From Phoronis australis (lineage: Eukaryota; Animalia; Phoronida), in the NCBI GenBank assembly GCA_002633005.1, contig NMRA01000090.1, positions 695,986 to 759,985 on the forward strand: a stretch of DNA of 64,000 nt, read 5' to 3'. Positions 11,100-61,560 of the stretch are shown piece after piece. Below the pieces are notes generated by a model. That model did not search any database, was not told where the DNA came from, and saw only the letters and a list, made by a program, of their open reading frames with translations. The position numbers were made by a program, and so were the translations under genes. Position 1 is the stretch's first letter. Each line of letters starts with the position of its first letter.

Positions 11100-11350
11100 C
11101 GCATGATGACTGACAAAACGGACAGATGGACAATCGATGGACGGACTGACGGACAGACGTACCCACTGACGGGAAGAGAACGGGCGGACAGAGTGTTGGA
11201 CCGACGGATGGATCCACGAGTAAGTGAAATAGTTAGCTTAAAGATGCACAGAAGAACGTACGCACTCACTCTGACGTGTGGAGAGGCGGAGAGATGACGG
11301 GAAAGATGTGTATTTGGGCGTTTGTTGGACTGATGGGTGAGCGGTGGATG
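11100..11350. repeat. Degenerate (GACA/GACG/GATG)n microsatellite-like tract
   Basis: Repeated GGACAGA, GACGGAC and GGATGGA motifs. Confidence 0.55.
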
Positions 11351-11730
11351 CAAAAATGTATTGAATTTGAAACAAGCAATTGCAGTACTAACATCTATCA
11401 ATCGATGTGATTTGGTAGACCGGCCAACGTTTTTGTCACACACATGCAATTAGCTATCACAAGTGGTTATTTAAACACATTGCCGTGAAACATACGTTGA
11501 AACAGCGTTCATGCTCGTTAGTGCTGAAAGCGTTGTTGAGATAAGCCTTACTGTCTTGCATGCAGCATGATGAAGGTGAGAAAGTGTGCGTAATTTACAA
11601 CACGACTATCACTTATTTCTTTTTTTGAAAACGTTGCATAAAATGGTCCTTGATATACCCGATGGTTCGTTTAAGTGATAGCGGAAGTAGCGGAGAGTGT
11701 AACATGTATTTAAACCGCTCGTTTTTATTG

Positions 11731-11899
11731 TATATATAACCTGTGGTGACGCCGTGTGTGGACGCTATCTTATTGAGTTACTAGTGGGAGAAATTTGATT
11801 CCCTATTCATTTGTGCGTTCGACATGTAACTGATATAAATAAGAAAGGTGAAGCGATTCACGCTACTCAACTCTTCAGCTTGTTTCACCAATAATCCAG
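11731..11899 (+). promoter_or_regulatory. Candidate TATA box and non-coding first exon of the luqin/RYamide-like gene
   Basis: TATATATAA at 11731-11739, then a strong donor CCAG|GTAAGA (intron from 11900). The coding exon at 17930 begins directly after a splice acceptor, so an upstream 5'UTR exon is expected. The assignment is an inference. Confidence 0.35.
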
Positions 11900-14800
11900 G
11901 TAAGAGCCAGTTTCGAGGTAGTAATGTGATTTTGAAACAGCATTTTTATCGCGCACTTACCGGTGATTGTTCATATAAGCAAGCTCATGTATTAGTATAA
12001 AATTGCAAGTTTACCCGTATGTAATTATATTGCAACTCCATCGGTTAATCACTATGATTACATGTATATGCCACGCATTAAAATTATTAGTCACTTGATA
12101 AGATTTTCAAGCTTGTACCTAACTTTTATGGGTTAGCGAGGGAGACAACTCAGTCAGGTGTTGCAGGTGGCATGAGCAAGTCCTTGTAATACTCTAGTTA
12201 TTATGATTTCCTTCTCATACAACAGTGTTTGTTTTCGTAAGCCGAAACAAGTTATAATATTTCTTCAGAATAAATACATTTTGTTTAAATAAGAGAAACT
12301 ACATTTTTTTTTGTTTTAATGCCGTACTAGAGGTTTATAGCCTAAAATCTAGAGGTGTTTTGATTTGGAAATTGGCATTCTGGCCACTACCACCTCTATC
12401 GTTACGTTACAAATATGACGACAAGTCGCTTTACTCACAAAATGTTTGCTGATAATTTGACGGCAATACGTTTTCCGGTTGTATATTCTCTCCATGAGAA
12501 AAAAACATACGTCTGTTTTCCAAAGATTTTATGTCCACCAAAAGGCCCCCGGGGAACTCTTTCGGGAAAAAGTTTTGAGTCTCTTTCAGAAAGGTGTATT
12601 ACTTAACACAGCGTTCTCACTCAGCAATGGCCTTACAAATCTTTGTAATAAGTAAGTGGCTGTCCTTCAGATTCTGTAACATTGGCATTGGAGGTGGTGA
12701 TTTGTTCCTTCAGGCTGGCTTAAATTTGATTGACCCGAAATACCTGCCACGTTCATTTCAGTTTTCGTAAGTTTAGCGACGATATTTACATGTATATCTC
12801 AGTGCGTCTGCGTTGACAAGTCACTAATAAACGTAAAATATTATTGCAAAATTCTCTAGTGATAGAGAAAACATATTTTCCTTACTTTTGCCCTGTGTCA
12901 GATATACAGAACGAACTCGGAGGAACTCCCATTGGAGCTTTTGCGCTCCTTGTTTGTGCAAAATAGCATGCGTTAGGGCTCAATGTTGGTGGGGTCTCTT
13001 TCAGAATTTCCGTGTAAGAATTTATGATGTCTAAGCCCATACCCCTGGGCAAGAGGTATTTGATTAAAGTAATGACGCAATTGCTATATTTTGTTTGTTA
13101 AAATAAGCTCGGGTTTGGGATATGAACAGATACTAACTACAACATGCTTATTTAAACATCTACCTCTAACAGTTTGGGGCAGATTTGAAAAATTCCCAGA
13201 AAAGTCTACCAAATTGGCAAAAAGCGTCAATAATCCTGTGCCTGAGAACGTGAAAAGCTAACTAGTAATAATTTCGCTCGACTAACACATAATATAAGAA
13301 ACTCTTTGTAACTTTCCGAGTTCCGTTGAGTATTGTTTAGTGTATATACTTGAATATTGCGCTTTTCACGCAGTAACGCTACTTTTAGCTGTCCCAATGA
13401 GGATGCGGAACAATGCTCTCGTATTGCTTTTGTTGCTGAGTTAGGTGACGCAGCTTTTAATGAAGCTCCAAAACAGGTTCACTATCACGTGGTGGTTGTA
13501 AAAACCTTAGTATGCTCAACTCAACTTTACTAAGCTCCAACAGGTACCAAAATATCCCACCCGTTCAAAACGTCGTAACACCATTCAAGAGTCTATTAAA
13601 TGCAAGCCGTTACATGCTTGCGGCTCACTGTAATATATTACTAAAATACATTATACACCGTAACACTCTTCAACAAGTCCAGTATGCGTGTTACAGTGCG
13701 CTCCCGGATCACAGTTTTAATTTTCGTAAACACACACGTTTTATTCCCATTTGATCCGTGTATTTATAGTGAAATAACCTTCCCGTAATGATTCCAAGAT
13801 TCAGCCAATTGATCGAAGCTCTTAGTGACGTTTTCGTTCTAGTTCCACTCTGCAGATTTTTAAGGGCATTACATGTTAAAAGTGTTCAATAATGCTTCAA
13901 AGAGAAGCGAAACATATTTGAATAGTTTCACGTCAAGTGCGTTTTGACTCCATAATAGATGTAGAAGTAACTGTGTCCAGGAAGTGATTAACATATCGGT
14001 TTATAAGAGCTCAAACTTTGAAGTTGTAATTGCTTGCTTTTATTGTGTGGTGAGTAATTTGCATCATGGTCATTTGAGGCAATGGAAAACATAACTTAGA
14101 TGAAGAGATTGTGTTGCTTTCCATGATACTAAACTCAGTTACTATCACGGTTTGGTATTCTGAAATAACACATGCAAATGTTATAGGTGGACATTCTGGA
14201 GTCATAGAATATTGACTCTTGTTTTTGATAACAGGCTTAACATAAATTTAANGTAACGTTTCTACAAAATTCATTCTCAGCCAATATAACTACCATGTAA
14301 CAGGTTTCTGGTTCCTCCATATGAAAATCCAGGTCAAAAAGAAGGTCACAAGTAGTCCTATTCAGTTGGAGAATTTTATGATGCCATCTTAACTGAGGCA
14401 GGCCAGCCAGCTGGCTCTCTGTTGTGTTGGCAGGGAATGGGGTAATTGAAACTTGCGCTTCAGTTAACAATTCTAATTGGGTTTTGGCTTGAATTTTCAG
14501 CAGGGATAGATTCGTCATGCAAATAATCAGCTAATTGAAGAAAATAATTAGGCAACCACCGTTTCGCAACAGCAAGCTGTGCCTCTCTTCGCTCTCTTAG
14601 GAGCGAAGCGCCAACTAGATGTCTATGTTGTATTGGATCGGCCGACGGAGGAGGCTGAAGATGGATCGGGGCTGGACCTCAAATTCGATTGAAACTAATG
14701 GGTTCACCGAGAGCTTGTGACGTGATGATTCATCTGAATGTTTTGAATACAATTATTTCATATCGCAAGGTCCCACTCTCTATCTAAAAGTACCAAAGTC

Positions 14801-17800: not shown

Positions 17801-17932
17801 GTGGGCTCGGTGAATGTTATTGCTTTGCTATACACGGGCGTCTTTTCCGCCCCAGGTCTTGAAGTATGTTTAGAGAATATTCTGGCGCCACCCCCACCCT
17901 CTTTAATTTACTCTCACTTCCAATTTCAGACG

Positions 17933-18071
17933 ATGAGGGGGCGGCCACACCTGTGGTTTACCTCGATCCTCTTTCTGACGTTCGTGGTAGGCACATTGCA
18001 GACTTGGATGCCACTGCGGTACGGAAAACGGCAACAAAGTATTCCGAATAACTCGTGGTTACATAAAAAAG
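17933..18071 (+). CDS. Luqin/RYamide-type neuropeptide precursor, first coding exon (signal peptide + TLQTWMPLRY-GKR)
   Basis: Polypyrimidine tract and TTTCAG acceptor (ends 17929); ATG at 17933; MRGRPHLWFTSILFLTFVVG-TLQTWMPLRY-GKR-QQSIPNNSWLHKK; phase-1 donor AAG|GTAAAC at 18072. A hydrophobic signal followed directly by a peptide and GKR is the canonical amidated neuropeptide layout. Confidence 0.75.
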
Positions 18072-20872: not shown

Positions 20873-22280
20873 AGAAGAATGCCACACGATTAACTTAGTT
20901 TTTTTACCATCTTAATCGGTCTATATACACATCACCTAGTATACAGTCGATCTCACCTCGCCGAGAGGTGTCGTGTTAACCTGTGAGGAAGGTGAGTACA
21001 CGACGCAGCGACGTCAGTGGTTCTTCAGCTGAGTGTTTGCTGCTATGGGTGGCGTATCGATCCTGCTTGGGCGAACCCCGAAGCTGCGAGAAAAGCTGGT
21101 ATATCCTTTTTTCGATTTCTTCGAAAATCCGAAATACTTTGGAAGTGATTCCCAGCAGTAAAGAGCGAAATGTACGCCGTTAATACCAAGTACATATACA
21201 TGTATGAGGCCGTGTATGTGGCCTGCACTGCTATGTTTCAAAATGATTTATTTTCACCCGAACCAATGTTTATATAAATCGGAAACAAAGTGTTAAAGTC
21301 TGTCTCAGTAGATAAAATTTGGCTTGGGAGTGTTCGTGAGAAATCAACAATAAATGAATCATAACGTTACCGGCTTCACATGCATTAAAACTATTTGACC
21401 GGGCGGCCGCCCAGTCGTGTGAGCGCATGCTAATTCAGTGTTTACTGACAGAAAGCTGTTTTGAAACTATAACTCGATTTTATAAGCTGTTGTCAGAGGT
21501 TAGGGGTATCTTTATTTAGATATATATATATACTTTATCCAAATCATTGTTATTAAACATCTTCCCCTGTACGCTTCTGGGGAAGGGGGACCTGGCTTCG
21601 CGACCGTGCCCGACGAGTAAGTAGATTTGCAATTTTGCGGCGAATTCATCAAAATATCGACGTACACATCATTTCTGTGGTTCACTAGTCTGGTCTTTTT
21701 GCGACTGGAAGTTTAGTTTTCATCTTTGGCAGAAAACTAACCCGCCTGGTTTATGTTTGTAATGCTTCCAGTGCGACCGTCGCAGGCCTGATCGGGTTCC
21801 AAGCCAAAGCTTATAACGAGCGTTTTGTGTTTAGAACTGGAAAATTCGCGAATATAAAATTACAATACACGGCTATGCTCTTCTGTGTGTATTTCACGGT
21901 GGAATAATTATAATTTATCACCGAACAGACTCCAAAATTCTCGCGACCGCCTATGGTAAGTTGGCCTATAGAATTTTGTATAGGCTACGGTACATTCCAA
22001 ATTTCTGTAAATCCGTAACAGCGAAATATAATAACTCGTCTCTTTATAAACTCAATGTATTTGTAAGGGTTTTACATTGAATTTTTATGATTTAATAGTG
22101 TAATAAGCTGGCATCAGTAAGAGTGTTGTGAACTGTGAACATACCTGTGACGTCATGGCTTAATTTCAGCACATCCGTCTGCCGTCTTGTGTCAGGTAAA
22201 AGAAATGAAATTGCTGTTATCCAGTGAAACTACTCGATCGAAATTCATTCAAAATGCGTTGTTTTTGGTAACAGACTACT
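20873..22280 (+). mobile_element. Non-autonomous Kolobok-like DNA transposon, copy 1
   Basis: TTAA on both sides (20869-20872, 22281-22284); termini AGAAGAATGCCAC...GGTAACAGACTACT; colinear homology with 54998-56619. Confidence 0.75.
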
Positions 22281-42963: not shown

Positions 42964-44899
42964 AGTGCTGCGGTAGCATAATGCCTTCGAATTTTCACTG
43001 CTGTGCGGTGAAGTGTGAAAAATGCCTTACGAAAAAGGGTGACCTTTTGAAATACCAATGAATGAAGAAGGAACTCATTTTCCATACATTTCCTATAGCG
43101 AACAAGAATCCGAGACGAAGCCAATGGCAGCGGCTTATAAAACGGGAGAATTTAGATCACAGCCCGGGTGTTAAACAGTGGAATTCATTTCTCTACATTT
43201 CTAGCAACGGACCACTATGTAGTAATTGAATTTCTGTCTACCAAATCTGACTCAGGATCAAGCGTTAGTCACTTTTACGCTCCCATTACTATAGAAAGCG
43301 CCAATATGGAAAGTCTCCCATTGAAACTGTTTTGTTTCCCTGTTTTGTTACACTGATACTCCTCGCTTTAGTCTGCTGTTTTTGAGCTTCTGAGAACAGG
43401 TAGAACAAACAGCAACGTAGCGATCCGTTGTTGGAAGTAAAATGAATGTGTATGAAATGTTTGAAAGATTAGTCTTCGGGTGAAGTTTGTTTGGATTTCT
43501 GATGGACTAATCTGTATTTTCTCTGTCCATTTAGTAGCCGATATGTAGCATGTACATTTTTATGGGATTTGTTTTTGTAGTACCTCGAATGTTTGCCCTA
43601 ACTCAATTTGGGGGTCATATTGGGGGTTTTTGGAATGCCTTTTCCGGAGTAAAATTTTCTTGTTAGGGGTCATTTAATGTTCAGTGTGTCACGGTAATTC
43701 AATTTCAAACAGTTTTGGCCGGTTCCTCTAGTAACTAGTCTAACTCACATTTTCAACGTCAATCTGATGCTCTTTGGGGGGTCCTACCAAAAGTGTATTT
43801 TGTATGACATAGGCCATGTACTGATTCCCATGGAATTATTTGGTGTACCTCGAACGCTTGATCTAGCTCAATTTTTGTAGACCCCCTTTTTGAATTTCTG
43901 GTGGGCCGGCTTCTAGAATGCGTTTTTTTTGTCACAGGACATTCGGTGCTAAACGTGGTGCGACTCTGAATTTTGAATTACCCAATATCGTACTGTTTGA
44001 TTTTTTCTCACCTTTAACAGGCAATCACAAATAAATAAATACCTAAATTGCAGTTGCATTTTATTACTCAATCTCTTCTTTTATTTTTAATTATATCATG
44101 CTGTGTTGTATGTAACAATGCAATGTAATGAAATAAAGTCAATGTTTTACTTTATTGGTGGCCATTCTCTGTCAATTCAAGTATTTTTATTTTCTTCAAA
44201 TAAATCCAAAATGCCTTAACCAAAAATTTCAACATAAATGTTGAGCTCAGTACTTTGTTTTGTAATAAAAAGCAAGTGGACAATATTTTGATGACCAAGG
44301 CGTGGGCCGAAACTGTTAAGCACACAGCGTGTTGCATTTGTCTGCTGCGTTTTTCCTTTGGCCTAACAAGTGTCGGTTAGTGGCTGGGACAAATAGATAC
44401 ATTGCATAAACAATCTCAGTGTTGTTTTTTGTTCCGTCTGAAGAAAATTTAATTTCGAAAATATCTTCTGAAAATGAACGAAAAAGTGCATTAGTAAAAT
44501 CTATAAGTTTTTAAGTGGTTTCAAAAAACTGTCGGTAAATGGACCGATTTTCGTCTCAGTTCCTCGATGCGTGATATTCCCGAGAGGTTAGTACCTAAGG
44601 TGCAGACGACCACTCTAGATTGGAACGCTAAGTCCCGCGCGGCTGCGCTGCACGCGAAAGAAAATGGCGAACGACCATTGGAGCCTGACGACGATAGGTA
44701 TCCGGATTTTACATGAAAAGGACACAAAATGTTGCTTCGATCGATTTTATCCAGACACTTCTCCCGGCGGAAGTAAAAGCACTGCGCGATTCACCGCCGT
44801 AACTAAGTCCTCCCAAGAATATAAATATTTTTTTGTTCATTATTTATTAGCTACGTCAGTTATTGACAATTGTCATTAACATGTCAGTCTGCAATTCGC

Positions 44900-45065
44900 A
44901 AAAAAAAACTATCACAGTTCATTGCACTCCTAATGTTGTTTATCCATTTTTCACGAAGTTCTTGGTTTGCAGGGAACACATAAAAACTCAGATTTTTATC
45001 TGTCTTTTTGTTTTTGAAGCAGCCAGGAACACAAGTGTATCCGCCGTAAGTTTTCTTCGCGATCA
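44900..45065 (-). pseudogene. THAP domain relic
   Basis: MIAKKTYGGYTCVPGCFKNKKTDKNLSFYVFPANQELREKWINNIR: THAP CxxxGC, FxxFP and RxxW motifs. Confidence 0.7.
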
Positions 45066-45325
45066 TTCCGCGTATTATGCTCGTTACTATGGTCGCTTTC
45101 GGAATCCTGACCACAGCACCCACAATGCACCATTTTAACCTAATTTCAATATGGCGTCGCTGCAAATCCGCTATAGGGCGGTCCCCATTGGGGAATATTT
45201 CAACCTCCCAGGCCCTACTACCAGTGACGTCAGTGTACTGGTAGTCAAAGGCGGGCTGTCGTACATTTACGCACGCAGAAAATGAGAGGCCGAATTCATC
45301 GCAAAATTTAACACTCACGCCAGAG

Positions 45326-45995: not shown

Positions 45996-46439
45996 TTTAG
46001 TTTTACTGGTTTTACTATTTTTATTGTAATATCTGTTCTGATGAACTGAAATCAGGTACCGACAAAAAGCCGTGTTTCTTAAACTAATCTAAATCTGTTT
46101 ACAAGAGACTAAACTAACATCCTATCGAAGAGATTTAGTATACCGCTTATGCAATAATGTTCGAGTGTGATAGGTTTGACCTATTAGTTGGACACACCGA
46201 TACTCTTAAATCAACCAAGGAGGCATTAACACGTGCCTAACGTTTAAAATTATATTCGTAGTATAAACCCATAAAAAGTGACCGCGAGTAATCTGATGTG
46301 GTGATCCGTTAATCTTAATGTGCCGTCACGTTCTCACCACACCCAACGCAGTCTCAAGATCCACTTATCTCTCATAATCTTGGATACGATACGTCACACA
46401 CGCAAAGCCGTGTACAGTGTATGTACGTTACATGAACTC

Positions 46440-46497
46440 TATAAATGATGAGATGACTGGTTTCCTGGCTAATTGGATCTGACAAGTCATTCGGCAG
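46440..46497 (+). promoter_or_regulatory. Candidate TATA box and short non-coding first exon of the CGRP/amylin-like gene
   Basis: TATAAA at 46440-46445; CRE-like TACGTCA ~50 bp upstream; strong donor GGCAG|GTAAGG (intron from 46498). The coding exon at 53171 starts right after an acceptor. The assignment is an inference. Confidence 0.4.
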
Positions 46498-46644
46498 GTA
46501 AGGTAAAGCTCCTTCGAATGTGTATACTTTATGTGCATTACTCGTTTCGTTTGGTCTTCAGATTTATAAAAACTCTCGAAATGTTTTCACAAGTTTGCGA
46601 GTACCACTTGTATTCAGTGAATTTCATCGCAGTAGTACCAAAAA

Positions 46645-46797
46645 CATGGGCGGCGCACCATAGGCGGCTGGGGGGGGGCTATAGCCCCCAACTTTTTTCA
46701 GTGATACACCGCACATGCTCTATAGGCGGTGCACCACAAGTGGGCTGAGGGGGCTTTATTCCCCCCCCCCACATGTTTCAGTGCTGCGCCGCCCATG
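46645..46797. mobile_element. MITE with 13-bp perfect TIR CATGGGCGGCGCA (hAT-like)
   Basis: CATGGGCGGCGCA...TGCGCCGCCCATG; G/C-run interior. Confidence 0.7.
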
Positions 46798-49039
46798 AAA
46801 AACGATTCAGATTCTTTGAACAAACGCTTCGCACACCTCCAAGCCCACTTTTCAACACATTTCGATCACGAAACAGTTTTTTTTCTTTCCTTTCAATATA
46901 GGTGTGAACGTTTCCAGTTGAAAACCCGAAATTTCAGTGGAATCATATTTCAGGCTGAAATTGATAAATGGCTATTTAATGTGAATATCCCACGTTTCAA
47001 CTAAAATTGAAATACAGGTTTTTTAATTAAGTTTTCAATTGAAGCTTAAAACTGAAAACTGACACGCGTACTGGGAAACATCAGCGAGACAGAACTGAGG
47101 TAAATAACGTCCTTGGACAGTCAATGATGACGTTACTGCTGGAAATTATGGATTGAGTGGCCTAGATAAGTCACAATGTAGTTCATGATTTCACCCCAGA
47201 TGCCGCTACGAGTTCATATAGTGTAATACCTCATGCAGCAAGGATACTGAGGGCAACAAGTCACCGGCAATGTTTTCGTTAAAGTTGCATTTCGCCTTGT
47301 TTAGATGTCTGAAAAAACGAACATCAAATTAGGACTTTTACTCTGACTCATAAAATCGGTCTCATAACATCCCTTATCCTGGCAGGGTTATATTCCCGTT
47401 GCCAACAAGAACACCGAAACCAGGTGGAACTCAAGAAAATGCTTTTGCAGTACTAATTTGACCATAGATAAAATTTCGAATTTCGAAAGGATGCATGAAC
47501 GCATTACCTATGACTTGAGTCGCCTGGTCATTGGACAGTAATTCTGTATCGGGTAAACGTGGTGATGTTTTTGGATTACGGGACATTTTGGTTGAAAATT
47601 CAACAGCGAAGAAATTAAAACTACTCTGATTAAACCAGGTCAACTAATTCAATGGTGGCATGTTTGATTCATGCAATTCTACCTTCAGCATTCAAAGACT
47701 GCTTATGCTGTGTAAATGACACGATTCTCCAAACTAAATGATTTCTTTTCTTTTTTCTACTACTTAAACTAATATTTAACAAAAACTTAGTAACGAGATG
47801 ACTACACCAATTTACAACACTATTTGACTGCACGTATTGTATGTCTTATCGAACACGGACCAGCTATTGAGTTTGACACAATCGATGATAAATGAGAAAG
47901 GTTTGAACAGGCTTATGTTTTAAGACTTAGAATAGGTTTGCTGACTGATAACGTCAACTAAAAGTAAACACAGGTAAAGATTATCTCTTTATTTGTTAAG
48001 TTTGACAAGAGTTTTTGACACAATTTGTAAAGCCGTTGGGAATGATAGCATCGATACGTACCAATTTTTAATCTTGGTGTCGCAAACGACCAACACAGCA
48101 AATGAGTTTCAGACGACAGTCTGAAATACATTAACGTGTTTGTTGGGGTAATTAGTGAATGTCAAACAAACTGCTGCCACTTGAACGACAGTTTTGCTCT
48201 GTTGAAGATGTGTCTTTCATCCAAATGTGGCGCTTGTTTTAGAAATACTACTTATCGCGTCGCCAGTGACGGAAATACGTGTGCATGGGATGTGATTCAT
48301 TTTCGATTTCAAGGAGAGCATTGGATTGAAGCATATTCAATGACAATGGACCATGAATAAAATGTGCAAAAGAATTTACACCTTTAAAAAGAGTTGCTCA
48401 GACTTTTTCATCAAAAATGTCTTTCTTACGGAAAAATGCTTGTTTTGTTTTTATTTTCGCAAAAAATCTGCGAGACCAGTGACTCTCGGCTGCTGCAAAG
48501 GTTTATGAAACGCCGTCACGAGAACGCATGCATTTCATTCGTTCATGCTGAAGTGCACGTGTAGTTGTGCAACGGTCGCTGAACAAGTGCTCGCGGGAAA
48601 GTCAATGACAGAACTCAGATTACTGTGGCAATAAGATGGACATTTTATTATTCGAGATAGTTCTAGCAATGCTAAATTCAGTGACACCAGAAAACAATGA
48701 CACATCAACCGATACCCATAGGCGTTGGAGGGTCTGAATTAGTGCAGGGGGCGAAATAAATGTCAGCCCAACATGATCATCCCTCTTTCTTGTTCGCCTA
48801 AGCATTCCCGTGAGACTTAAAACACTATAGCGGAAAGAGAAGTGCAACTAATTTGACTTCGCCGAACTCTTGTTGCGCCCGTGGTCAAGTTCCTTCCTAT
48901 CGCCATTATTTCATCCTCCCCTGGTCGTCGTCAATTTTCCACCCGCTGTCCATAATAGGCGTGCTGTGGGAAGGGGAACATCGGGAAGGCAGGTACCAGT
49001 AACTTAAGCTCCGTGCTTCAACAAAACTTCACGAGGAAC

Positions 49040-51430
49040 CATCCACTTTAGAAAGAGAGTATTATTACCTGTATTCCCAAAAGTGCAGACAAAAGTAAAC
49101 ATTTTCTAAAAAACTGGCGTTCTATTTCTCTTCTCAATGTAACCTACAAAATCGCGTCTGCAGCAATTGCGGAACGCATAAAGTCTGTGCTAGGGAAAAT
49201 TATTCATGAGGATCAGAGTGGCTACATCCGGGGAAGGAACTTGGCTGATAACATTTGTTTGCTATACGATCTATTCTATTATTCCCAGAAGCTCCAAATA
49301 CCTGGGCTACTACTTCTTATAGAATTTGAAAAAGCTTTTGACTCTTTGCCAAATAAAACTCCAAGACAAAGTTTGTCTTGGAGTTTTATTGAAAAAGTTT
49401 TATCTTTTTTTAATTTTGGGTGGTCAATTAAGAGATGGGTCAAAGTTTTCTACAAAAATATCAAACCGTGTGTTATTGTTAATGGCCAACCTTCTCGTTG
49501 GTTTAATATACAGAGAGGAGTCAGACAAGGTGATCCATTATCTCTTTATCTATTTCTTATTTGAGCGGAAGTTTTGGCTCTCATGATCAGACACAACAAA
49601 AATATAAGTGGAATCTAAATTATTGATGGTGAGTACTTACTAACTAACTCAATATTCTGACGACATTTTTATTATTTTATATGGCTCGGAGATGTCTTTA
49701 CGGTCTACTTTAAATGTTCTAAATATGTTTGCTCATTTCTCCGGCCTCAGGGTCAATATTGAAAAAAACACAAAAGCCATTTGGCTTGGTAATATGGCTA
49801 ACAGTGCTGAAAAATATTCTGTCAGAGAACAGTTATCGTGGACCAAAACAAATTTCATGTTCTTGGGATTGATTTCCAAGTCAGCTTACATGATATGGCA
49901 GATCAGAATCACTTGGCGAAATTAAAAGATATATATAATTGAATTAATTTTGAAAAATTGGTCCAAAAGAATTTTGACACCTTTCGGGAGGATTACAGTA
50001 ATCAAGGCGCTTGCGGTTTCAAAAAATTGCACATCTTTCTTCTAATATCATTGCCACAGCCTTCGAAATATATTCTAGAAAAACTGAACTCAATGTTTTT
50101 TTAATTCCTCTGGCAAGGTCGCAGTGACAAAATAAAGCGCTCCCGAGCTGTTTGTAATTATAATAAAGGAGGTATTAGAATTATTAACATATTTTCATTC
50201 TGTAAGGCTTTAAAGATTACCATGCTAACAAAATTTGTAAACGGACAGTCTAAGACGGCCCGTTTGTTTCATTTGATTTTCTGAAATTAGAAATTTCGCG
50301 AAGTATGGAGTTGACTTTCCTAAGATAATTTTGCCTAATATTGACAATCACTTTTGGATAGATTTTTTTTTTTGAATGTGTAATTTTCTTTGGAAATTGT
50401 TTGAAGATCAAAAATCAGATAGATTTTCTTAACCATTCTTCATGGTTCAGCAGTGACCTGCAGGTCGGAACAAAAAGTATTTTCTACAGGAAAAGGTGCT
50501 ATGGAGGCATAGTCTTTATAAAGGACTTGTTTTCCCCAGACGGTAATATTTTGAGCTATCGATTTATTGTGGAAGTTTTAGGTTTCAAAACGAGCTTCAT
50601 GGAGTATAATAGTCTAATTTCAGTGACATTTAAGTACCAACAGAAATGTGCTATTGATAGAGTTGTTAGTTTTGATGCGTATTGTTCTGTTATGCCAACA
50701 ATTTTAATGAAACTGAAAAGTGGTGGGAGAGCTTGTCAACAAATTTCTACACAATTAAATTGTAGATCCGAAGTCTCAAAAGCCGAGTCAAAAGGGGCCA
50801 AAGAACCTAACGTAAATACAAATAATTTTTCATGGGAATATGTTTATTCCCTTCTATATAATACAAAAAGAGACCCAAGAACTAGGTGGCTTCAGTTCAG
50901 ACTCTTGACGAGAACTTTGACTACTAACTCATTTTAAAAATAATTCAAGTTACGGATGACGACTCATGTTCCTTTTGTGGTCAATCGAAAGGGTCTCTGA
51001 AACACTTATTTTGGGATTGTGAAACGGTAAATTCATTTTGGACAAAAGTTAATGAAATTTTAAACAAAGCAAATCCCCAGTGTGTCGGCATTCTCTCCTG
51101 CAACAAGGTCATTTTTGTTTTTTGTTTTTTGATAAAAAGGAACATTTCAAAAACGTGGTTTTACTATTGGGTAAACAGTTTATTTATACCCAAAAGTTCG
51201 GATCAAAAAGATTACTTCTAAGTAGTTTTTTTTTACTTTATCAAACAATATTATATGAGTGAAAAGTATAGTGCTCGTAAGGATTTAAATTCAGAATTTG
51301 TACAAAAAGATGGTGTAACTTTGAAACTGTTTTACTTAGTAGTCAAGGTGTGGGGTATCCGTGAATGTGGTGTTCTTGTCTTTTTCTTGTTATTGTGAAT
51401 GTTATCATTGCCAATAAATGTATAAAAAAG
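49040..51430 (+). mobile_element. 5'-truncated Tx1/L1-clade LINE (decayed ORF2: RT and C-terminal zinc knuckle)
   Basis: LKNWRSISLLNVTYKI, IHEDQSGYIRGR, IEFEKAFDS, RGVRQGDPLS, QYSDD, SGLRVN, WLQFRLLTRTLTTNS, CSFCGQSKGSLKHLFWDC; AATAAA and an A-rich tail. Confidence 0.9.
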
Positions 51431-52610
51431 AATTACCATGGTTCAGTGAAAATATTTCTTTTGTTCCAAAATATTACAAAACAATTCTAAGAATGAAATT
51501 GGTGCAACAAATGAATTCAAAAATACCAAAAACCAGAAACCTATTTTTTTCAGAGTATTTTGTCACTTATTCAACAGTGTTTGAGGTTATATTGATTATT
51601 CTTTTATCCCCAAGTAAGATCAATGTTTTCACTATCTTAAGTTACGCACCATTTGATAAAAAATGATCATGTGCATTTTTAATTAATCAAAATTAAATTA
51701 GAATATACAATTTCAATGAAATTTAAATCAATTTCATTCCTGTCAAATAATATAGGAACTGAGAAGCGTTATGTCAGTGACCATCCAAAAAGAGCATACT
51801 CGTATTTTAAACGGTTTTGATGCACTGCAGCGTTGAATAAACAATTATTTTAATGCAAAAAAATTTCACGAGGAAGGTCAAAGGCAAGTTTTTGGGCATG
51901 TACATGCCACACGATTACGCATAGGGTGAAATTTTAAGTTTCATAGGTTGCAAAAAAGATGATCTGCCAAAATCATGATAGCTGATACGAAACCTTTGAA
52001 ACCCCAAAACCCTTAGAAATACGGGAGGAACAGCATTACTCTGGAATTACTGGATGGAACATCGTGGCGGAATTTACTGTTATAGTTTGGTCTATTCCGG
52101 GGAGTGAAAATGGGTCTTAGGGTCAGGGTTCACTTTATTGGGGTCCAGTTTGGGAAAAAATCACTTTATCATTGTTATGTTTGAAGGAATAGACTTTGAA
52201 AGAGAGCGAGTTCTCGTTGAGTTCAGCGGGATACTGCATCCTATTACACGGAAGTCTAAGACCTAAGACCACGGTTCAGGCCTTTGTAGCTCCCCAAAAC
52301 TGCAGAAAATGGGAAGGGTCGGGTTTGACTGCAGTTTTGTGGACTGTGTAGGAAGTGATTGCCATGAATGGTATTCTATAGTTCCTTGAAGTTGTTTTGA
52401 GTAAAATGAATCCAGAAATTTGGTCTGTGCTCTTGTCTATTCGGGATACGAAAGTGTCGCCATTTTCAGAGCACATCTTTGTTGGGTCTTGAATTCTTGG
52501 CGCGAAATCCGGTATACTTCAGACAAGTGGAAATTGTCAAAAATCTGGTTGGTAATAACATGATTTCTGTGATCTAAAGTGTAGAAGATTCGGATTATAA
52601 TCTTCTTTCT

Positions 52611-52850
52611 CATGCGTGCACCCAGGGTGCTAGGGGGTTCGAACGAGCGTTGGCGAAGTAGGCAAAAACGTCCGCCTCATAGAAACAAAAACTACGAAAA
52701 AGTAGAAACGAGACAAAAGTACACTAAGAAAGCAAGAACTTCCGAAATTCACAATTCATAGCTCTGAGAGTACCCCGTAAGTCTTTGTAAAAGGCCAACA
52801 TTCTAAAAAATTCGACCCCCCCCGCCCAATTTAAGTTGGATGCGCTTATA
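52611..52850. mobile_element. MITE (hAT-like, imperfect TIRs)
   Basis: CATGCGTGCACCCAGG...GGGGGTTCGAAC on the left; TTCGACCCCCCC...TTGGATGCGCTTAT on the right. Confidence 0.45.
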
Positions 52851-53171
52851 TTTCTTGTATCGAGGCAGTCGTGGGTTTGTGATTTGAGGTAAAAAAAGAC
52901 CAAAATCGCACTTTTTGTCAATTTTGGCATCTCGTTTTTTTTCGGTGGACGTGACGAGGTAAAACGACATGGCTTTGTTGAATTTATCCATCTTTGAGAA
53001 ACCCAACAAAGTGTAATCTCTGCCAGTTAAGAATTTTTTCAGGTGTCTTGAGACAGGGTGCAAAGAAAAGTTTTCATTGACCCAGACCAGTGGTCTTAGT
53101 CCTCGATACATCAGACAAATGTTTAGTTCAAATGTATGATCGCCCTCATTAATGCATACGTGTATTTCAGG

Positions 53172-53358
53172 ATGAAACTTTTGGGCGTGGTCGTGCTGTG
53201 TCTTACTTTGCTTTTGGTGACCCAAACATGCCGTGTATCAGGAAACACGCGACACAAGCGAACGTGTCAAACACAGTTGTGCAAGAACTTGATGGCAAAA
53301 TACTTTCAAGAACTCAAACTTACTGGGCATGCCAAGGACGTCGGGAAATTTGGCGATG
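53172..53358 (+). CDS. Secreted peptide precursor, CGRP/amylin/calcitonin-family-like, main coding exon
   Basis: TATTTCAG acceptor (ends 53170); ATG at 53172; MKLLGVVVLCLTLLLVTQTCRVSG (signal) NTRHKR (furin-type RxKR) TCQTQLCKNLMAKYFQELKLTGHAKDVGKFGD; probable non-canonical phase-1 donor ATG|GCATGT at 53359 followed by T-rich intron-like sequence. Confidence 0.7.
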
Positions 53359-53464
53359 GCATGTTATTTTATTATTGTTTATTACTGGTCATTGTCTACT
53401 CTTTTATTGGTTGTTATGTACTTCAGTCCGTGAAAATATTAAATGAAGATCATTTTCGGAACCA

Positions 53465-56400
53465 AAGAACCGTACCTTGATGTGGTATGTGTACAGCCGT
53501 TTCGTCCATACCTCACATACTTGATTTACCGCCGGGTAAGCCTTCAGTCGTTGTAGAATAAAACAATAAAAACACTACCGGGATTCCCTAATCTCAGGGG
53601 GAATCCCCTACATCTGAATGCACTGCAGGTAGATCAAGATCTATCAACATACTCGCTGAAGGTAAAAGGGGGCTGCTGTTGTTATTTACAAAGCAGACTT
53701 CCAACAGAAATTTCATACACTGCTGGATGATCGCAATACTCATCAGCCACTGAGATCCATCCAAGTTTCAGAACAAGTTTATCAGTTTTCTAAGAGAGTG
53801 GCAACGTACAGATCCTATACCCAAACGTCTGCATGACCGGTTGCACCCCACGGCCTGGGAAGTGCCTAAGCTGTACGGTCTACCTAATATTAATAAACAA
53901 GGTGCTGCCCCAAGACCTACATATTAATTGTCACTTACAACGTGGCTAGAGTTTTGACGAACATTCTTGCACCATTGATGAGTTTGTCTCGTCATATCCG
54001 CAACAACGAAGACTTCATCGACAGAATCAGTGACCTCGAGATACCTTCACGACGTAAGATGTTATCCTACGATGTATCCGGTCTTTTCACTAGTTGTTCC
54101 CACGGAGAAAGCCGTCGCTGTTATCATGTCTCGGTTAGAGAACGACGATGATCTCAGCAGTCGCACCCATCTATCGGTTGATCGCGTCATACGACTCTTG
54201 CAGTTTTGTTTTGAATACCACTTATTTTGTCAAATCCGAGTAGCGCTCATGGGGTCTCCCATGTCACCCATCGTCGCCAACATCGCCATGGAAGATTTTG
54301 AGATCCGTGCTATGGCGACAGCGGCAACTCCCCGGTCACAGTGGAGTCGTTATTTTGACGACACCTTCTTATAGTAATCCAAGAAACTGCTACTGATGAA
54401 TTCCCGGAACAACTCAACAACAGGATCCATCCATCCAATTTACCCGGGAACTCCAACAAGATGGCACTCTCCCCTCCCTCGATACTCTCACCCGACTACA
54501 TGGTGCTGGTTCCATCTCCTCCGTTCACTGCAACCCTACGCACACTGGTGAGTATCTTAGCTTGGCATCGAATCACCATCTGTCTCACAAACGATCCGTA
54601 GTGCGGACTCAACTCAGCCTAGCCGAGAAACTTGTTTCTGATGACAACAAAAGGGAAGCTGTGGTACGTAACCTGAAACGAGCATTGTGTGCCAACGGAT
54701 ATCGTGACTGGGTGTTCGATCTACGTAACGAGTAACGGCCACGTCAGTGTGAACCCCCTGGGCCTCCGATCATCAACTTCCCTGTTTGTATATCCTATGT
54801 CAGAGGCGTCTCCCAAAGGATTCTGGCCATCTGCCGTAAACACAACACCAAGTCGTTTCACAAACCGTTTAGCACTATTCGGTCCATCTTCCCATCTGTG
54901 AAAGATGTGTCACCTCCCTCGAGAGGTGTGGTGAGATGTACGAATACAAGTGTGGAGAGTGTACTGACAACTATATCGGTGAGACGTCCAGGCTTAAAGG
55001 CGAATGCCACCCGATTTAATTAGTCTTTTTTGCCGTCTTAATCGGTCTATTTCCACATCGCCTAGCGTACGGTCGACCTTACCTTGCCAAGAGGTGTCGC
55101 GTTAACCTGTGAGGAAGGTGAGAAACGACGCTAGCGACGTCAGTGGTTCAAATGCATAGTTAATGCCGCTATGTTGCGGTGTATCGTTCCCGCTTGTCCG
55201 TACTAAGCAGCTGCGAGGAAAGCGAGTATATCGGGGTTTTTTTTACTTCCTCGAGAGTCTGAAATGCTTAGGAAGTGGCTCATGGTAGTGAAGAATGAAA
55301 TGTATGCTGTAAATAGCAAGTATGAGGCCGTGAAACATCTCCGTGTCTGTGACCTGCAGACGTCGACAGTGCCTGACGAATGCCGGCTTACCAAATAACT
55401 CCATACGTTCCGTTGTTCGAATTGATAGCCTGTAAGACTTAACGATCCACCTGCGAAGTCGGGATTGATGAGCTGCTCTAGCTCGTCCTAAGTCGGGATT
55501 GCGAGTTGCCATGTTGACGTTTATTACTGACCGTTCTGTTTCAAAATGAATTATTCTCACTCTAACCAATATATAAAAGTGAAACAAAGTCTGTCTCATT
55601 AGATGTAATTTGAAATGCTTTTGGAGTGTTCGTGAGTGCACGAAATGATTTGAGAAGCCAGCAATGAATAGTCACTGCGTTACTGGCTTTAGGTGCAATA
55701 AAACTAATTGACGGGACACTGAGACCGTGTGAGCTCTAATTTAGTGTTTGCTGGCAGAAACTGTTGTGAAACAACTCGATTTCCACCCCACGACCAGGTG
55801 TTAGGGGAATCTTCATTTACATTTACATTACTCAAATAATGATTGTCAATGTACAACTTCTGCCCTGACGGTGCTGTGGCCAAAGCGGAACTGAATTCGC
55901 GGCCCCCGACGAGTATGTAGATTTGCAGTTTCGTGGCTAATTCACCAACATAATCACGTGCACATTACTTTGGCTCACTAGTATAGTTTTTTCTTGACTG
56001 GAAGTTTAGTTTCCACTGAACTTTGGCTGGTTTGTTCGTGTTTCTGATCAGTTTCCGAGCCACTGGCAGGGATAACGAGTCAATCCGGCCGGCCGCCGAC
56101 GGGCCTGATCGGGCTCCGAGCCACTGGCCAGGATAACGAGCGTTTTGTGTTTAGAACTCAGAAAATCACAAGTCTAAACAACACAGATCTAGGTTCTCCT
56201 GTCTGTATCTCACAGAAAATACTTCGAAATTATCGCCAAACACACCCCAAACTCCTGCTATGGACCTCATTGGCCTGCCGAACTTTGTAGGCTACGGTGT
56301 GTCCAACTACCAATAAATCCGTAAGAGCGAAATAAAACAACACGTTTTTGTAAGAACTCGGTGTATTTTAAGGGTTTTACATCGAAGTTTGATGATTTAT

Positions 56401-56937
56401 TGGTGCTAAACGATGACTCCAAGCTATAAGCTGACACCAGTAACCCGTGTTGTGAACTGCTGAACAGAACGCGTGTGAAACCGATGACGTAATTGGATAA
56501 TTTCAACACCTCCGTCTGCCGTCAGGTGTCAGGTAACGCAACCGCACGTGTCGTTATGGAGTAGAACTACTCGATCTAAATTGATACAAATTAGGTTGTT
56601 TTTTGGGTGGCATGCTCCTTTAAGAACCCCAACCTTAGACCTACGTGTATTACTGCTGTTCAAAAACATGCCACAGATCTACGTCACTAGATCTCTGACT
56701 AGAACTTAGTATATTAAGCACAGGGTGCGAGAAGCTATTGACATCCAAATCCACGGACCAATTATGAAGAGAGATTCGGAACTTGGAGTGTATTCATATC
56801 TGTTGGACATTAGAGAACCCCCGGTAGTGTTTTTATTGTTTTATTCTCCAACGACAGAGGACGCACCCGGTGGTGAATCAAGTGTGTGAGATATGCACGA
56901 AACGGCTGTACACTTACCATATCAAGGTACGATTCTT
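53465..56937 (+). mobile_element. Penelope-like element (decayed RT + GIY-YIG) bounded by ~120-bp inverted terminal repeats
   Basis: PKLYGLP, SYDVSGLFTS, MGSPMSPIVANIAMEDFE, RYFDDTF, YEYKCGECTDNYIGETSR, and REAIDI after the nested insertion; 53465-53586 is the reverse complement of 56815-56937. Confidence 0.88.
54998..56619 (+). mobile_element. Non-autonomous Kolobok-like DNA transposon, copy 2, inserted in the Penelope GIY-YIG domain
   Basis: TTAA TSD (54994-54997, 56620-56623); TIR AGGCGAATGCCACC / GGTGGCATGCTCCT; homologous to 20873-22280. Confidence 0.85.
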
Positions 56938-58771
56938 CACGTAATATTTTCGTCATCTAAATAAGGCCCAGTAATATACATAGTCTCATTTTATAGGTGT
57001 TGCGTAAGTGGAAGTAAATTCGCTAAATATTATGACGTGCACAGTGCACAATAATCAATTTTACTTCCTTCGTAGCTCGTAACCAGGTCGGATGCTCATC
57101 ATATCGAAGTACGAAATGTGGGGTTAACTTATGTCTTTGTAATTATCATACGTGATCCTCTCGTACACCATTCCCTACCCGCGATGAAACTTCCTCGCTT
57201 AAAGAAAACTTGCAAACCGAGCTGCTGGCCTATTATTGATGTTCTCGTCTCATTTTCTCAATGAATTATTTGAATACTGTGAAATCAAATAAAAATAATC
57301 GTATTCTCATTACATAGTTTGAATACCATTCATCTGGTCGAGTTCATTTGCAAAAATTGTGGTTAGTCTACTAATACTCGTGTTCAGCAGGACTTCATGG
57401 TATACATGTACGTGTACGTTAACAACATGTAGGCCTATTGCTGAGTTGAGCGCCAAGTGAATTCAATAGTTGGACCCCTTAGCAAAAGCATGAACTCCAC
57501 ACCAACTCTTATTCAGGTTATGTGTATTAATGACCGTAGATAAATGTCCAAATCTTGGTAGATTAGAAGCATCATATCCCAGGCTGATCAGATTCGTATG
57601 AATTTTTTGTTACTATGTTTCATACACTCATGTTCTCAATAACACTGTCAGGAATTGTCGTAACAATGTTCCCTTATAATACACCAGGGTCTGTCAAAGA
57701 ATAGGATTTTTATGATTTTAATGAAACAGTTGAAGTTCCATGGAAACAAAAACGAAATAACATTTTAGAAAACTGAAACAGCATTTTGAGATCTCACATT
57801 GAGCATTTATATTAAATAAAATTTAATCATGTATGGTATGTTGCTGATTTGCAGTCAATGCACCTTCCGTTTTGTTAAATTTTACTACAAACACTGGATA
57901 AACAGGTGTCATTAGTTGTCCGTACTCCACCAAGTTTAACTCAATTTTAGTTCCTCTTCAAAGCGTTAAAAGACTTCTTTACCGGCAGCCATTTTGACCA
58001 AAAAAAATTAAAAATGTAGAAAAACAGGAAACCTGTTTGTAGGTAGTTCCTTCGCGTGAATGGTTGAAAGGGCATATACTTGTACTTTGTATATTAGTTT
58101 CACTTCTGACGTGTGACTTCGATGGTTACAATTTGAAATAACCATAGAATAATTATTATGTATTAATAGACCTTTCTTTAAAATCGGCATCTCTAATTTT
58201 AGTTGAGACCCTGTTTTGCCAAATTCAAAGGGGACATTTTTACTGTTATAATGTTGAAAAGTGCATTTTTCTTCCGAAATGTGATCACCACTTGTCGCAT
58301 GAAAGATGGGTCCTCCTTAGTCTATTGTTTTCGTAGATTTTTATGCTATTGGTCCCTCAGCTGTGACTGTGTGGGTGCATGGGAGAGAGCAAGGTTGAGT
58401 GAGTGACATGGTTATTACCATTGTAACGTTTCCAATTGATGATTGATAAACTTCCTTAAATAAGAAATTCAAATTTTAAGTTTACTCGAAGCCTGCCATT
58501 GAAACTTAACCAACTGTCAAGATGAAACAGTTAATTAAATTTCGAGTAGGCCTACAGGGATTAAACGCAAGGTTTAACCTATAGTATAGTCCTGTCTAAC
58601 GGAGATTAGACCCGCGGCTCTGTAACCATTTGGAAAATAAATAAGTATTCACTTTACCTGTTAATCAAATGTATATGTGGTGCATATGGCCGCTAAACAA
58701 GAACGGGGACATGGTGCTGTCGTTCTTAAATTCTGCTGTAACTAATACGTTGTTTTGTGTTAACATTTCAG

Positions 58772-58788
58772 GCACGTACGTCGGATAA
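58772..58788 (+). CDS. Probable terminal coding exon of the CGRP/amylin-like precursor (G-T-Y-V-G-stop)
   Basis: Branch-like CTAAT at ~58742; TGTTTTGTGTTAACATTTCAG acceptor ends at 58771; phase-1 join gives GGC ACG TAC GTC GGA TAA, placing a terminal Gly (amide donor) directly before the stop. Confidence 0.55.
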
Positions 58789-59419
58789 AGTCAAGCATTG
58801 GAAATACATATTTCATGCTGACGTCGTCACTGAAAGTGCTTTGACTTGGATTTTCTTTTCAATTTTACTTTGGCAATAGACAAGATCGTCAGTCGGCTAC
58901 TTACTATGCAATGTACTATGAACGGAGAGGCACCTGTAGACGAACAGTTGCCTGTATCCAGTTTTAACATTTTATTTCGTTATGTATTTATCGCCTACAT
59001 GAGAAACAATACTTTTTCAAACACGAACACTCCCATGGATTAGCAACTGGCAGCTTGATTATTACGTTTTGCCTTCTTGAGAAATTCAGTGTCAAATTGA
59101 CTGAGCTTCTGCAATGATGAACTCGACAATAATCCACGTAATGCATCACCTGCTTGCCAGTGTTGGTGCTGTAATAAGCCACTGTTGTAGTCAATAACAT
59201 GTATCTTACCTGAGCTTTGTGGTTAATTACTACAGACAATTCCGAGGTGGATGGGATCTGTGGTCTGATGACCTTTGCTGGTTGCTTTGTTGGTAGCGTT
59301 GTGTCTTCAAGGGATCAGTTAAAGCTGATTCGACTGTTAAGTACTGTAGGCTAAGAACGAAAATTAAATTAGGCCTTTTACTTGTTCATAAAATCTGTCT
59401 TACAATAGTCATTGTGCTA

Positions 59420-59615
59420 GGATCTTATCGGCTTCCGTTTCCAACAAGAACATTAGAATTATCCGCGACACAAGAAAACACTTCAGAGTTTATTGGCCAA
59501 CCCTAAAATTGCGAATTCGAAAATGGCGCACGTACGTCTACGATTTGGCTATAGATCGAGTCGTAACGGAAATGGAATACTATCGATGTAAGGAGCATTT
59601 TGTGACAGGGCAAAA
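59420..59615 (+). pseudogene. THAP domain relic (C-terminal half)
   Basis: CKEHFVTGQ matches THAP CxxHF; degraded upstream. Confidence 0.4.
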
Positions 59616-59941
59616 TGCGATTTTAAGTAATGACATGTAGTTCAAATCCACTTCAACACAAACGCCATCATGGGTAGTCATCCATGCATGTAACATGACG
59701 GTGGCGTCTTTGTGTCATTTCAGTCTTTAGAAATTCCACGAACATGTTATCACACAAGCAAATAGCAATCTCTACATCAGCAATGATTGCACTGCAGGCC
59801 TTCACGGAACTTCTGTTCGACGCATACGGAGAGCTATACAGACGTGCTCAGCAAACTGTCTCTGTCAGCTAAGAGCTTAGCTCCCGTCAAAGCACTAACA
59901 ATTGAATGAAGTAGACTCTAGTTAAACCAATTGTTGTGCTA

Positions 59942-61560
59942 GGCTTTGCTGTGAAAAAGATTTAAAATGGGAAAGTTCCCAGTTCACATCTCTTGGAATT
60001 ACCTTCTCTGTCAACTTACAGGACATGATTCACTTAAACTATGATGTAAAATTAAATGGGGTTAGAAAAGGCATTGGAAATTGGTCAAAAAGAAATTTGT
60101 CTACCTTTGGTAAGATAACGGTTGTCAAATCTTTCTTATTACCAAAACTGATTCACCTCTTTTACACACTTCCTCTTCTAAGTGCTACTTTTTTAAGGAC
60201 ATTGAAAAAATATTCTTTAATTTTATATGGGCTACCTCTTCTGATAGAGTCTCTAGAAAAACCATGGTGCAGAAATCTGGAAGTTGGAGGTGGGAATAGG
60301 GTTCATATTCATATTGCGTCATTGTCAAAGCTATTAAACTGGCTTGGATTCGAATATTCTTCAAAAATTATTATAACAATACTTCTCTTTGGCTAAATAT
60401 TTTATGTGAAATTATTCCTAATATAAAAACTGACTCTTTTCAGTTAGGTTCTTGTTTTTCCTTGAAGTATCTAACCGTACTAAGAATATTTTTGGAAGGA
60501 TAATTTTATATATTATACGAATGTATCAATCTTTGTGAGATAGATGATCCTTTGTACGAACCTTTGTGGTATAACCCCAAAATTTGTATAGACAGTAATC
60601 CATTTTTGGAACGAGTGGTTTCAAAGGGGTATACGGTACGTATACGATTTAATTGACCCTGATAAGGGATATATTTTTGATTATCATACCTTTTGCACAC
60701 GTTTTCAATTTTGCCCTTGTATTACTCATTTTATGGAATTCGAAGTTCAATACTTCGTTCTTGGAATCATCTAAGAGACAAGAGTACTATAGTCACTCCA
60801 CTTTTTCCAGAACATATTTTTCGAATCTCCTCGGAAAATAAAGGGACTGGGAAAATCTATGAATTATTCATTTCTAAATTATATGTAAAACCTGTCGCAG
60901 AATTGAAGTGGGAGAGAGAAATTAACTTATGCGATGATACTCAGTCTTGGAAAAAAATTCATTCAGTAATTTATCATTGTACTTCTGATGTCAGACTCAG
61001 ATGGTTTCAATTCCGTATCAACCACAGAATTATTGGTACAAACTCTTATTTAAAGAAAATAGGTGTTAGTGAATCGTCTTTATGTTCTTTCTGTGAGCAA
61101 CATGAAGAAACAATTCTACATTTGTATTCGGAATGTTCACTTGTTCAGAAGTTTTGGAGATGTTTAAGAACATGGATGTTAAATCAGTGCAGTTTCCCTC
61201 TGCAGTTAAATATGTCTTCCGCCTTGTTTGGAGACCCAGCCTGTAGATCCAAAGTTGTAAATTTAATCCTTTGCTTAGCGAAATTTCATTTATATAGACA
61301 AAGACTACAAAAGAGTAAGCCCAATTTTCAGTCATTTTTACGTGAGGTATGTGATTACTACAACCTGGAAAAAAATATTTACAATGATAAATTGGATCTT
61401 GAGAGATTCCACGCAAGGTGGTCTTTTTTGCTAGCTTTTATAGGGTCCGATAATGTTCGTAATTTGTTTAATGTGCACTAAACTAGGTGTCATATTGTCA
61501 CACAACTATGTACCGGTTGGTTGAGTTAATAAATGTCTCTACCAAAAAAAGAAAAAAAAA
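59942..61560 (+). mobile_element. 5'-truncated Tx1/L1-clade LINE 3' part with poly(A) and probable TSD
   Basis: WSKRNLSTFGKITVVKSFLLPKL, LRWFQFRINHRIIGTN, CSFCEQHEETILHLYSEC; AATAAA and a poly(A) tail; AATTGTTGTGCTA (59929-59941) resembles AAATGTTGTACTA (61559-61571). Confidence 0.88.

Follow-up and report, generated by a model that had tools for sequence, protein, structure and literature searches.

A transcribed gene for a CGRP-shaped, predicted amidated peptide in Phoronis australis

Does an invertebrate genome encode a peptide hormone built like those of the calcitonin/CGRP family, whose members have an N-terminal ring, a helix after it and a C-terminal amide within 30-40 residues (PMC6283891)? 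The question is raised by a 64,000-nucleotide stretch of contig NMRA01000090.1 of Phoronis australis (hereafter the window; positions are counted from its first letter), in which a preliminary description, made from the sequence, placed a gene of CGRP/amylin architecture. Our analysis showed that the gene is real, transcribed and spliced, with a level that varies by sample. The peptide predicted from it is CGRP-shaped, yet departs from CGRP/amylin proper and from the Pro-amide calcitonins, and its membership of the superfamily is unproven.

Structure, transcription and variation of the gene

Joining 53172-53358 to 58772-58788 gives 204 nucleotides that translate into 67 residues and a stop. 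Both the sequence and the ends of the RNA pieces agree with this precursor as it had been proposed. A TTTCAG acceptor lies immediately 5' of 53171, ahead of the start ATG at 53172, and another lies directly before 58772. The leader has a best 11-residue Kyte-Doolittle mean of 3.4 and small residues at -3 and -1 of the predicted cleavage site. The R-x-K-R pattern at the end of the propeptide is the consensus of furin and the proprotein convertases (PC). The precursor terminates in Thr-Tyr-Val-Gly-stop, predicting a mature peptide of 36 residues with a Tyr-Val-amide. The signal peptide, R-x-K-R site, C-x4-C ring and Gly-stop that the preliminary description listed are all present in the predicted precursor. 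Eight basic-pair/Cys-ring motifs occur in the six frames of the window, and only this one has a strongly hydrophobic leader (3.4 vs. 1.9 for the next best). In 100 order-2 Markov simulations of the window, the combination of a hydrophobic leader opened by Met and a subsequent [KR]R-x0-3-C-x4-5-C was seen once. At 53359 the intron opens with a non-canonical GC donor (G/GCATGT, cut at the slash), which had not been flagged before; GC donors are a minor yet established intron type. No tandem copy of the gene was found in the 64-kilobase (kb) window by tblastn. Unspliced read-through, which would yield 102 residues including another hydrophobic stretch, is ruled out by the contig piece that stops at the donor.

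Four sequencing runs under one species label were mapped to 46000-61400, of which X1 consists of contigs, presumed to be RNA, and X2-X4 of raw reads. Record 3 of the X1 contigs (434 nucleotides, depth 30.9, + strand) matches 58771-59017 starting from its letter 186. The exon-2 piece of the X1 contig, with the same depth of 30.9, is placed at 53168-53357 by distance-to-end values, five of which agree on 53357/8 as the end of the piece. We infer from the piece ends that the 53358/58772 junction is used, its leftmost cut fitting them; a row for this junction is not among the 15 joints listed of 79 in the X1-X4 mapping. By letter count, about 6 nucleotides are missing from the first X1 piece, probably because of an indel in X1. 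A loss of 6 nucleotides would equally follow from use of a second GC donor, in frame, at 53353; the product would then be a 34-mer that ends in the same Thr-Tyr-Val-Gly-stop. Splicing is predicted to retain the terminal Gly, as the preliminary description had assumed: the exon-3 piece starts at the acceptor, and the 53353 donor would keep the Gly as well.

The stranded reads of X4, in which a first mate on the minus strand denotes RNA on the plus strand, are 20-32 deep at seven exon-2 sites, with 0 on the opposite strand. Together with the X1 contig piece, they confirm the transcript over 53171-53358 on which the proposed gene depends. The X4 depth is ~13 across 58772-58849 in the sense direction and falls to 0.05 within the intron (unique bin 57822-58335). 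Over 58850-59363 the sense depth is 2.8 in X2, 6.0 in X3 and 14.9 in X4. At the exon-2 sites X2 and X3 have 0-3 reads, about a tenth of X4. The exons are thus covered in the sense direction, the intron is nearly empty and X2 and X3 are low; therefore the gene is real and its level is sample-dependent. A candidate exon 1 far upstream has an X4 sense depth of 1.27 (about 650 bases in bin 46000-46513) and a depth of 0 in X2 and X3, tracking the exon-2 pattern across the three runs. The end of this candidate exon and the acceptor of exon 2 have CAG in common, and the X1 piece begins there, at 53168. The features of the gene and of its surroundings are collected in the table.

Table. Features of the peptide gene, followed by other features of the window
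Feature	Position	Strand	Basis or detail
Candidate promoter and 5' non-coding exon 1 (TATAAAT 46440-46446; donor CAG/GTAAGG at 46498)	46440..46497	+	inferred
Exon 2 (start codon, signal peptide, propeptide, mature residues 1-32)	53171..53358	+	sequence; RNA depth 20-32 in X4; X1 contig piece
Signal peptide as predicted (24 residues, cut after V-S-G)	53172..53243	+	hydrophobicity; cleavage site inferred
Propeptide, six residues, ending in R-H-K-R convertase site	53244..53261	+	translation
Residues 1-32 of the mature peptide, with Cys2-Cys7 ring and a helix predicted at 5-22	53262..53358	+	sequence; AlphaFold2 single-sequence model
GC-AG intron, 5.4 kb, phase 1, splitting the mature peptide	53359..58771	+	sequence; contig piece ends
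Exon 3 coding part: final four residues, amide-donor Gly (58783-58785), stop	58772..58788	+	sequence; start of X1 record 3 at 58771
3' untranslated region, reaching about 59360 or beyond (ATTAAA at 59363)	58789..59380	+	sense-strand depth; signal scan
Decayed reverse-transcriptase element in the intron	53982-54371		Pfam RVT_1, E 8e-5, below curated cut-off
Two decayed LINE-type (long interspersed) elements flanking the gene (RVT_1, zf-RVT)	49052-51220 and 59926-61481	+	Pfam
THAP-domain relic	44884-45300	-	Pfam
Second candidate neuropeptide precursor exon	17930-18071	+	acceptor AG 17928-17929, ATG 17933, donor 18072

The samples differ in sequence, as seen among the 40 differences listed of 1851 for X1-X4. 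The X1 contig has at least seven differences from the window in exon 2, which give five amino-acid changes, two in the leader (C20Y, R21H) and three among the first 11 residues of the mature peptide (Q3R, N9E, M11L). The difference in the Cys2 codon is silent, and a change of Cys7 is absent among the differences listed. In exon 3, X1 has four differences in 247 nucleotides. The X4 reads equal the window at six of the seven listed sites, and at the seventh 4 of 32 reads differ. One X3 read has 22 other differences and three letters in common with X1. Thus, at least three sequence types occur under one species label (window and X4, the X1 contig, and the one X3 read). X1 may come from a related species, or be a paralogue instead of an allele.

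Comparison with known peptide families

All three features of the family shape are present or predicted in the peptide (PMC6283891). The hydrophobic leader adjoins R-H-K-R, where cleavage is predicted; the N-terminal Cys pair occurs as C-x4-C with a predicted disulfide; and the Gly-stop in exon 3 supplies the amide donor. For residues 1-32, AlphaFold2 on the single sequence models a helix at residues 5-22 and a disordered tail, with a predicted local distance difference test (pLDDT) score of 84 and 79 for the first and second blocks of 10 residues. The four residues in the ring fit the 4-5 that usually separate the cysteines of deuterostome calcitonin (CT)-type peptides and not the 7-9 of protostome ones (PMC6002491). 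C-x4-C had been regarded as a hallmark of vertebrate CGRP; this does not hold, because the amphioxus Bf-CTFPs also combine a CGRP-type ring length with an N-terminal extension (PMC6283891, PMC6002491). The short ring is already known outside vertebrates, and only the non-proline amide would be new. Pro-amide terminates all aligned calcitonin-type peptides except the vertebrate CGRPs (PMC6002491; PMC12638048), and the Tyr-Val-Gly-stop terminus here lacks the Pro-amide of CT, CTFP and DH31. Departures do occur: the first ringed peptide in calcitonin precursors of phoronids has neither Pro nor Gly at its end (PMC8557429 supplement).

Bf-CTFP1-3 are, by description, close invertebrate counterparts in their CGRP-type ring length, N-terminal extension, modelled helix and amide (PMC6283891). 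However, Bf-CTFP1-3 have 31-33 residues, a Pro-amide and three tandem genes, whereas the present peptide has 36 residues and a Tyr-Val-amide, and its gene is single-copy in the window. A similar N-terminal ring with extension, helix and F-G-rich tail are found in the echinoderm and hemichordate peptides ArCT, AmCT and AjCT1/2, which have 35-40 residues (PMC6002491, PMC9793003, PMC12638048), and F-G-x-G-T recalls the echinoderm F-G-x-S-G-P tails (PMC9793003). These peptides differ in their five ring residues, Pro-amide, Gly at -5 and larger precursors.

Amylin and CGRP have in common with the peptide one residue before Cys2, a C-x-T-x-x-C ring, a hydrophobic L/M-A-x-F/Y pattern behind it, nearly the same length (37 vs. 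36 residues) and a non-proline amide, which is predicted here. Comparison by eye with 11 CGRP/amylin sequences (PMC8557429 supplement) showed that Cys2, Thr4 and Cys7 coincide. L-M-A-K-Y-F fits the CGRP/amylin pattern R-L-A-x-F/L-L with one gap, and the tail contains D-V-G and T-Y, like the V-G and T-Y of CGRP/amylin. A short propeptide and compact precursor also occur in one bird amylin isoform (PMC8557429 supplement). However, the ring is C-Q-T-Q-L-C, whereas 11 of the 11 sequences compared have C-x-T-A-T-C; one CRSP-like fragment likewise departs from this motif (PMC8557429 supplement). The CGRP/amylin tail N/D-V-G-x-x-x-F/Y-amide was not found either, as D-V-G lies at -11 to -9 rather than -7 to -5, four residues further from the amide than the N-V-G of amylin/CGRP. 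An alternative alignment via F-G-D-G-T-Y requires one extra Val, and the amylin-like tail of the preliminary description is therefore a loose likeness. CGRP and amylin precursors continue with G-K-R or G-R-R and a C-terminal peptide, whereas this one ends in Gly-stop, and here, unlike in CGRP/amylin, the intron lies inside the mature peptide. The lack of Ala5-Thr6, the tail out of register, the position of the intron and the three X1 substitutions argue against a CGRP/amylin orthologue.

Protostome calcitonin, DH31 and the iPTH/PXXXamide/QSGamide peptides are, as is predicted here, amidated and of similar length, and are ligands of G-protein-coupled receptors (GPCRs) of class B. Protostome calcitonin has a ring of 7-9 residues and DH31 has none, both end in Pro-amide, and the PXXXamide motif is not in this peptide. 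The lead towards PXXXamide peptides, which had been raised earlier, fails, as inspection by eye found no Pro at -4 and no A-D-x-R-L-A-type start as in iPTH/PXXXamide/QSGamide peptides.

Competing readings of the peptide

A ring, helix and amide at the length of the family, together with the two-domain engagement of class-B receptors by calcitonin/CGRP peptides (PMC10166269), lead us to take as the best reading a divergent calcitonin/CGRP-superfamily ligand of a class-B (secretin-type) GPCR, which we regard as somewhat probable. By the rules known from other precursors, the leader would be removed after V-S-G, a convertase would cut after R-H-K-R, Cys2 and Cys7 would form a disulfide, and the terminal Gly would serve to amidate Val36 with no basic site involved. 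Going by its architecture, the amidated tail would dock on the extracellular domain of the receptor, and the ring and helix would enter the membrane core and raise cyclic AMP. The loss of Pro-amide in this lineage would most likely be unconnected with vertebrate CGRP/amylin. The peptide would then be a ligand candidate for orphan class-B receptors. As an expressed invertebrate peptide that combines a short ring with a predicted non-proline amide, it would also provide a natural test of a single pre-vertebrate origin of the tail change against repeated origins, and of whether RAMP-like partners read this tail.

Several observations weigh against a calcitonin-superfamily ligand. The helix-like segment of the preliminary description is reproduced by the model, but the amphipathicity of residues 8-20 is not above that of shuffles (p 0.30; hydrophobic moment up to 0.50). 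Gly occurs at -4 and -6 and not at the conserved -5, Gln-Leu replaces the Ala5-Thr6 of 11 of 11 CGRP/amylin rings, and the signal peptide and peptide start on one exon with an intron splitting the peptide, whereas sea-cucumber CT peptides each have their own exon (PMC12638048). The changes Q3R, N9E and M11L beside the ring, vs. four differences in exon 3, are unusual for a hormone, whereas the ring motif is constant over the 11 CGRP/amylin sequences compared. The homology searches, in which the query was exon 2 or part of it, lacking the last four residues and having low power at 32-62 residues, also detected no relative. No calcitonin-family entry of Pfam matched, no calcitonin-family match was obtained at E<=10 among PDB sequences, two word-based homologue searches returned 1 and 13 candidates with none at E<=10, and the 1.84-billion representative library contained no relative. 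The predicted peptide has the ring, helix and amide layout that had been proposed, but none of the sequence tools used recognised CGRP, amylin or calcitonin in it, phmmer and Pfam for CGRP/amylin included.

Matches that did appear were rejected: ApoA-II in Pfam (E 0.024, below cut-off) as a signal-peptide/helix effect, two designed helical bundles among PDB sequences (E 1.2-1.8) as no relatives, and three long multi-repeat proteins with unrelated Pfam content in the representative library as chance. None of 320 pattern matches in metagenome contigs was confirmed, the best ESM Atlas value of 0.83 was below the useful range and revealed no relative, and Foldseek found no match with the 32-residue model, which is too small to inform. 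No published description was found by terms or by six exact motifs, which reach only near-identical species, and no matching precursor was found among the supplement passages of PMC8557429, PMC9793003, PMC6188537, PMC5627052 and PMC6425005. The peptide gene is apparently undescribed so far, as had been suggested, within database and literature-motif searches of low power that covered neither figures, bioRxiv supplements nor most subscription papers.

The amount of change next to the ring is the main reason why a non-hormonal explanation is retained. A lineage-specific, fast-evolving secreted peptide (a pheromone, a gamete or skin signal, a defence peptide or a hormone mimic), in which the ring, helix and amide are convergent and not inherited from the calcitonin family, is the main rival, possible but rather unlikely. 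Such a peptide would be consistent with the three or more sequence types under one species label, the coding sequence that differs more than exon 3, the minimal precursor with its Gly-stop and the roughly tenfold difference in level among the runs. Calcitonin-family hormone mimics are described in ticks and vampire bats (PMC13311285), and the nearest Atlas clusters are conotoxin and defensin-propeptide precursors, but at 0.76-0.83, inside the shuffled range. However, the expression is modest and does not look gland-like (about 25-fold depth from 1.6 gigabases of X4), the 64 kb contain no tandem copy and the net charge is only about +2. The variation itself may separate species or paralogues rather than alleles if X1 is one of these, and it is known from 40 of 1851 difference rows. 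If allelic, it would mark an unusually fast-evolving hormone-like peptide, of interest under a convergent origin too.

The remaining explanations are weaker than a divergent calcitonin-superfamily ligand. A true non-proline branch of amylin/CGRP type in an invertebrate, beside an ordinary Pro-amide calcitonin and diversifying rapidly within the species, is improbable. Were it true, the split between calcitonin and CGRP/amylin/adrenomedullin and the selectivity of receptors that read the tail would predate vertebrates. More doubtful still is a peptide from a different class-B ligand system (PTH/iPTH-PXXXamide/QSGamide or CRH/PDF type) that would have acquired an N-terminal ring. A signal peptide with a basic propeptide of six residues is reminiscent of the prepro layout of PTH, and a phoronid QSGamide/iPTH precursor has C-x4-C, though close to its peptide's C-terminus (PMC8557429 supplement). 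However, the Pro at -4 and the A-D-x-R-L-A start of QSGamide/iPTH precursors are missing, and an N-terminal ring is a calcitonin-family feature. We give the lowest probability of all to a real frame with a different product, either because splicing uses another donor or because the precursor is not matured into an amidated form. The non-canonical donor, the junction deduced from piece ends and the roughly 6 nucleotides of the X1 contig unaccounted for would leave room for it, but the agreement of the five distance-to-end values, the exon-3 piece beginning exactly at the acceptor and the ending retained by the sole nearby in-frame alternative (53353) argue against it.

Surroundings of the gene in the window

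The window has few genes and many decayed retroelements, with a GC content of 39% and a CpG observed/expected ratio of 0.89. Such a ratio argues against a vertebrate genome; the genome is therefore invertebrate, in agreement with its earlier description as invertebrate-looking. TACATGTA was found 20 times in the window vs. 1.9 expected by base composition, and enrichment of this type occurs in several marine invertebrate genomes. A repeat in the intron of the peptide gene (54993-56623) is abundant in X1-X4, its depth per bin and strand class being about 100-300 in X2 and X3 and lower in X4, and a stretch near 20900-22270 resembles it by eye. Two inverted repeat pairs seen by eye (approximately 7860-8010/42790-42950 and 8040-8220/8830-9060) are probably non-autonomous DNA transposons.

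The second candidate precursor gene, starting at 17933, has a hydrophobic leader followed directly by a short peptide that ends in W-M-P-L-R-Y-G-K-R, a predicted RYamide. It had no match in Pfam, the Atlas or the homologue search, nor among the literature and supplement motifs searched, and it is only loosely like the scallop LPFRYamide and IWMPxxGY peptides (PMC5996578). Upstream of it, at approximately 10690-11900 on the + strand, inspection by eye found TATA-like boxes and the donors AAG/GTAAGT near 10912 and CAG/GTAAGA near 11899. These features may belong to non-coding 5' exons of the gene at 17933.

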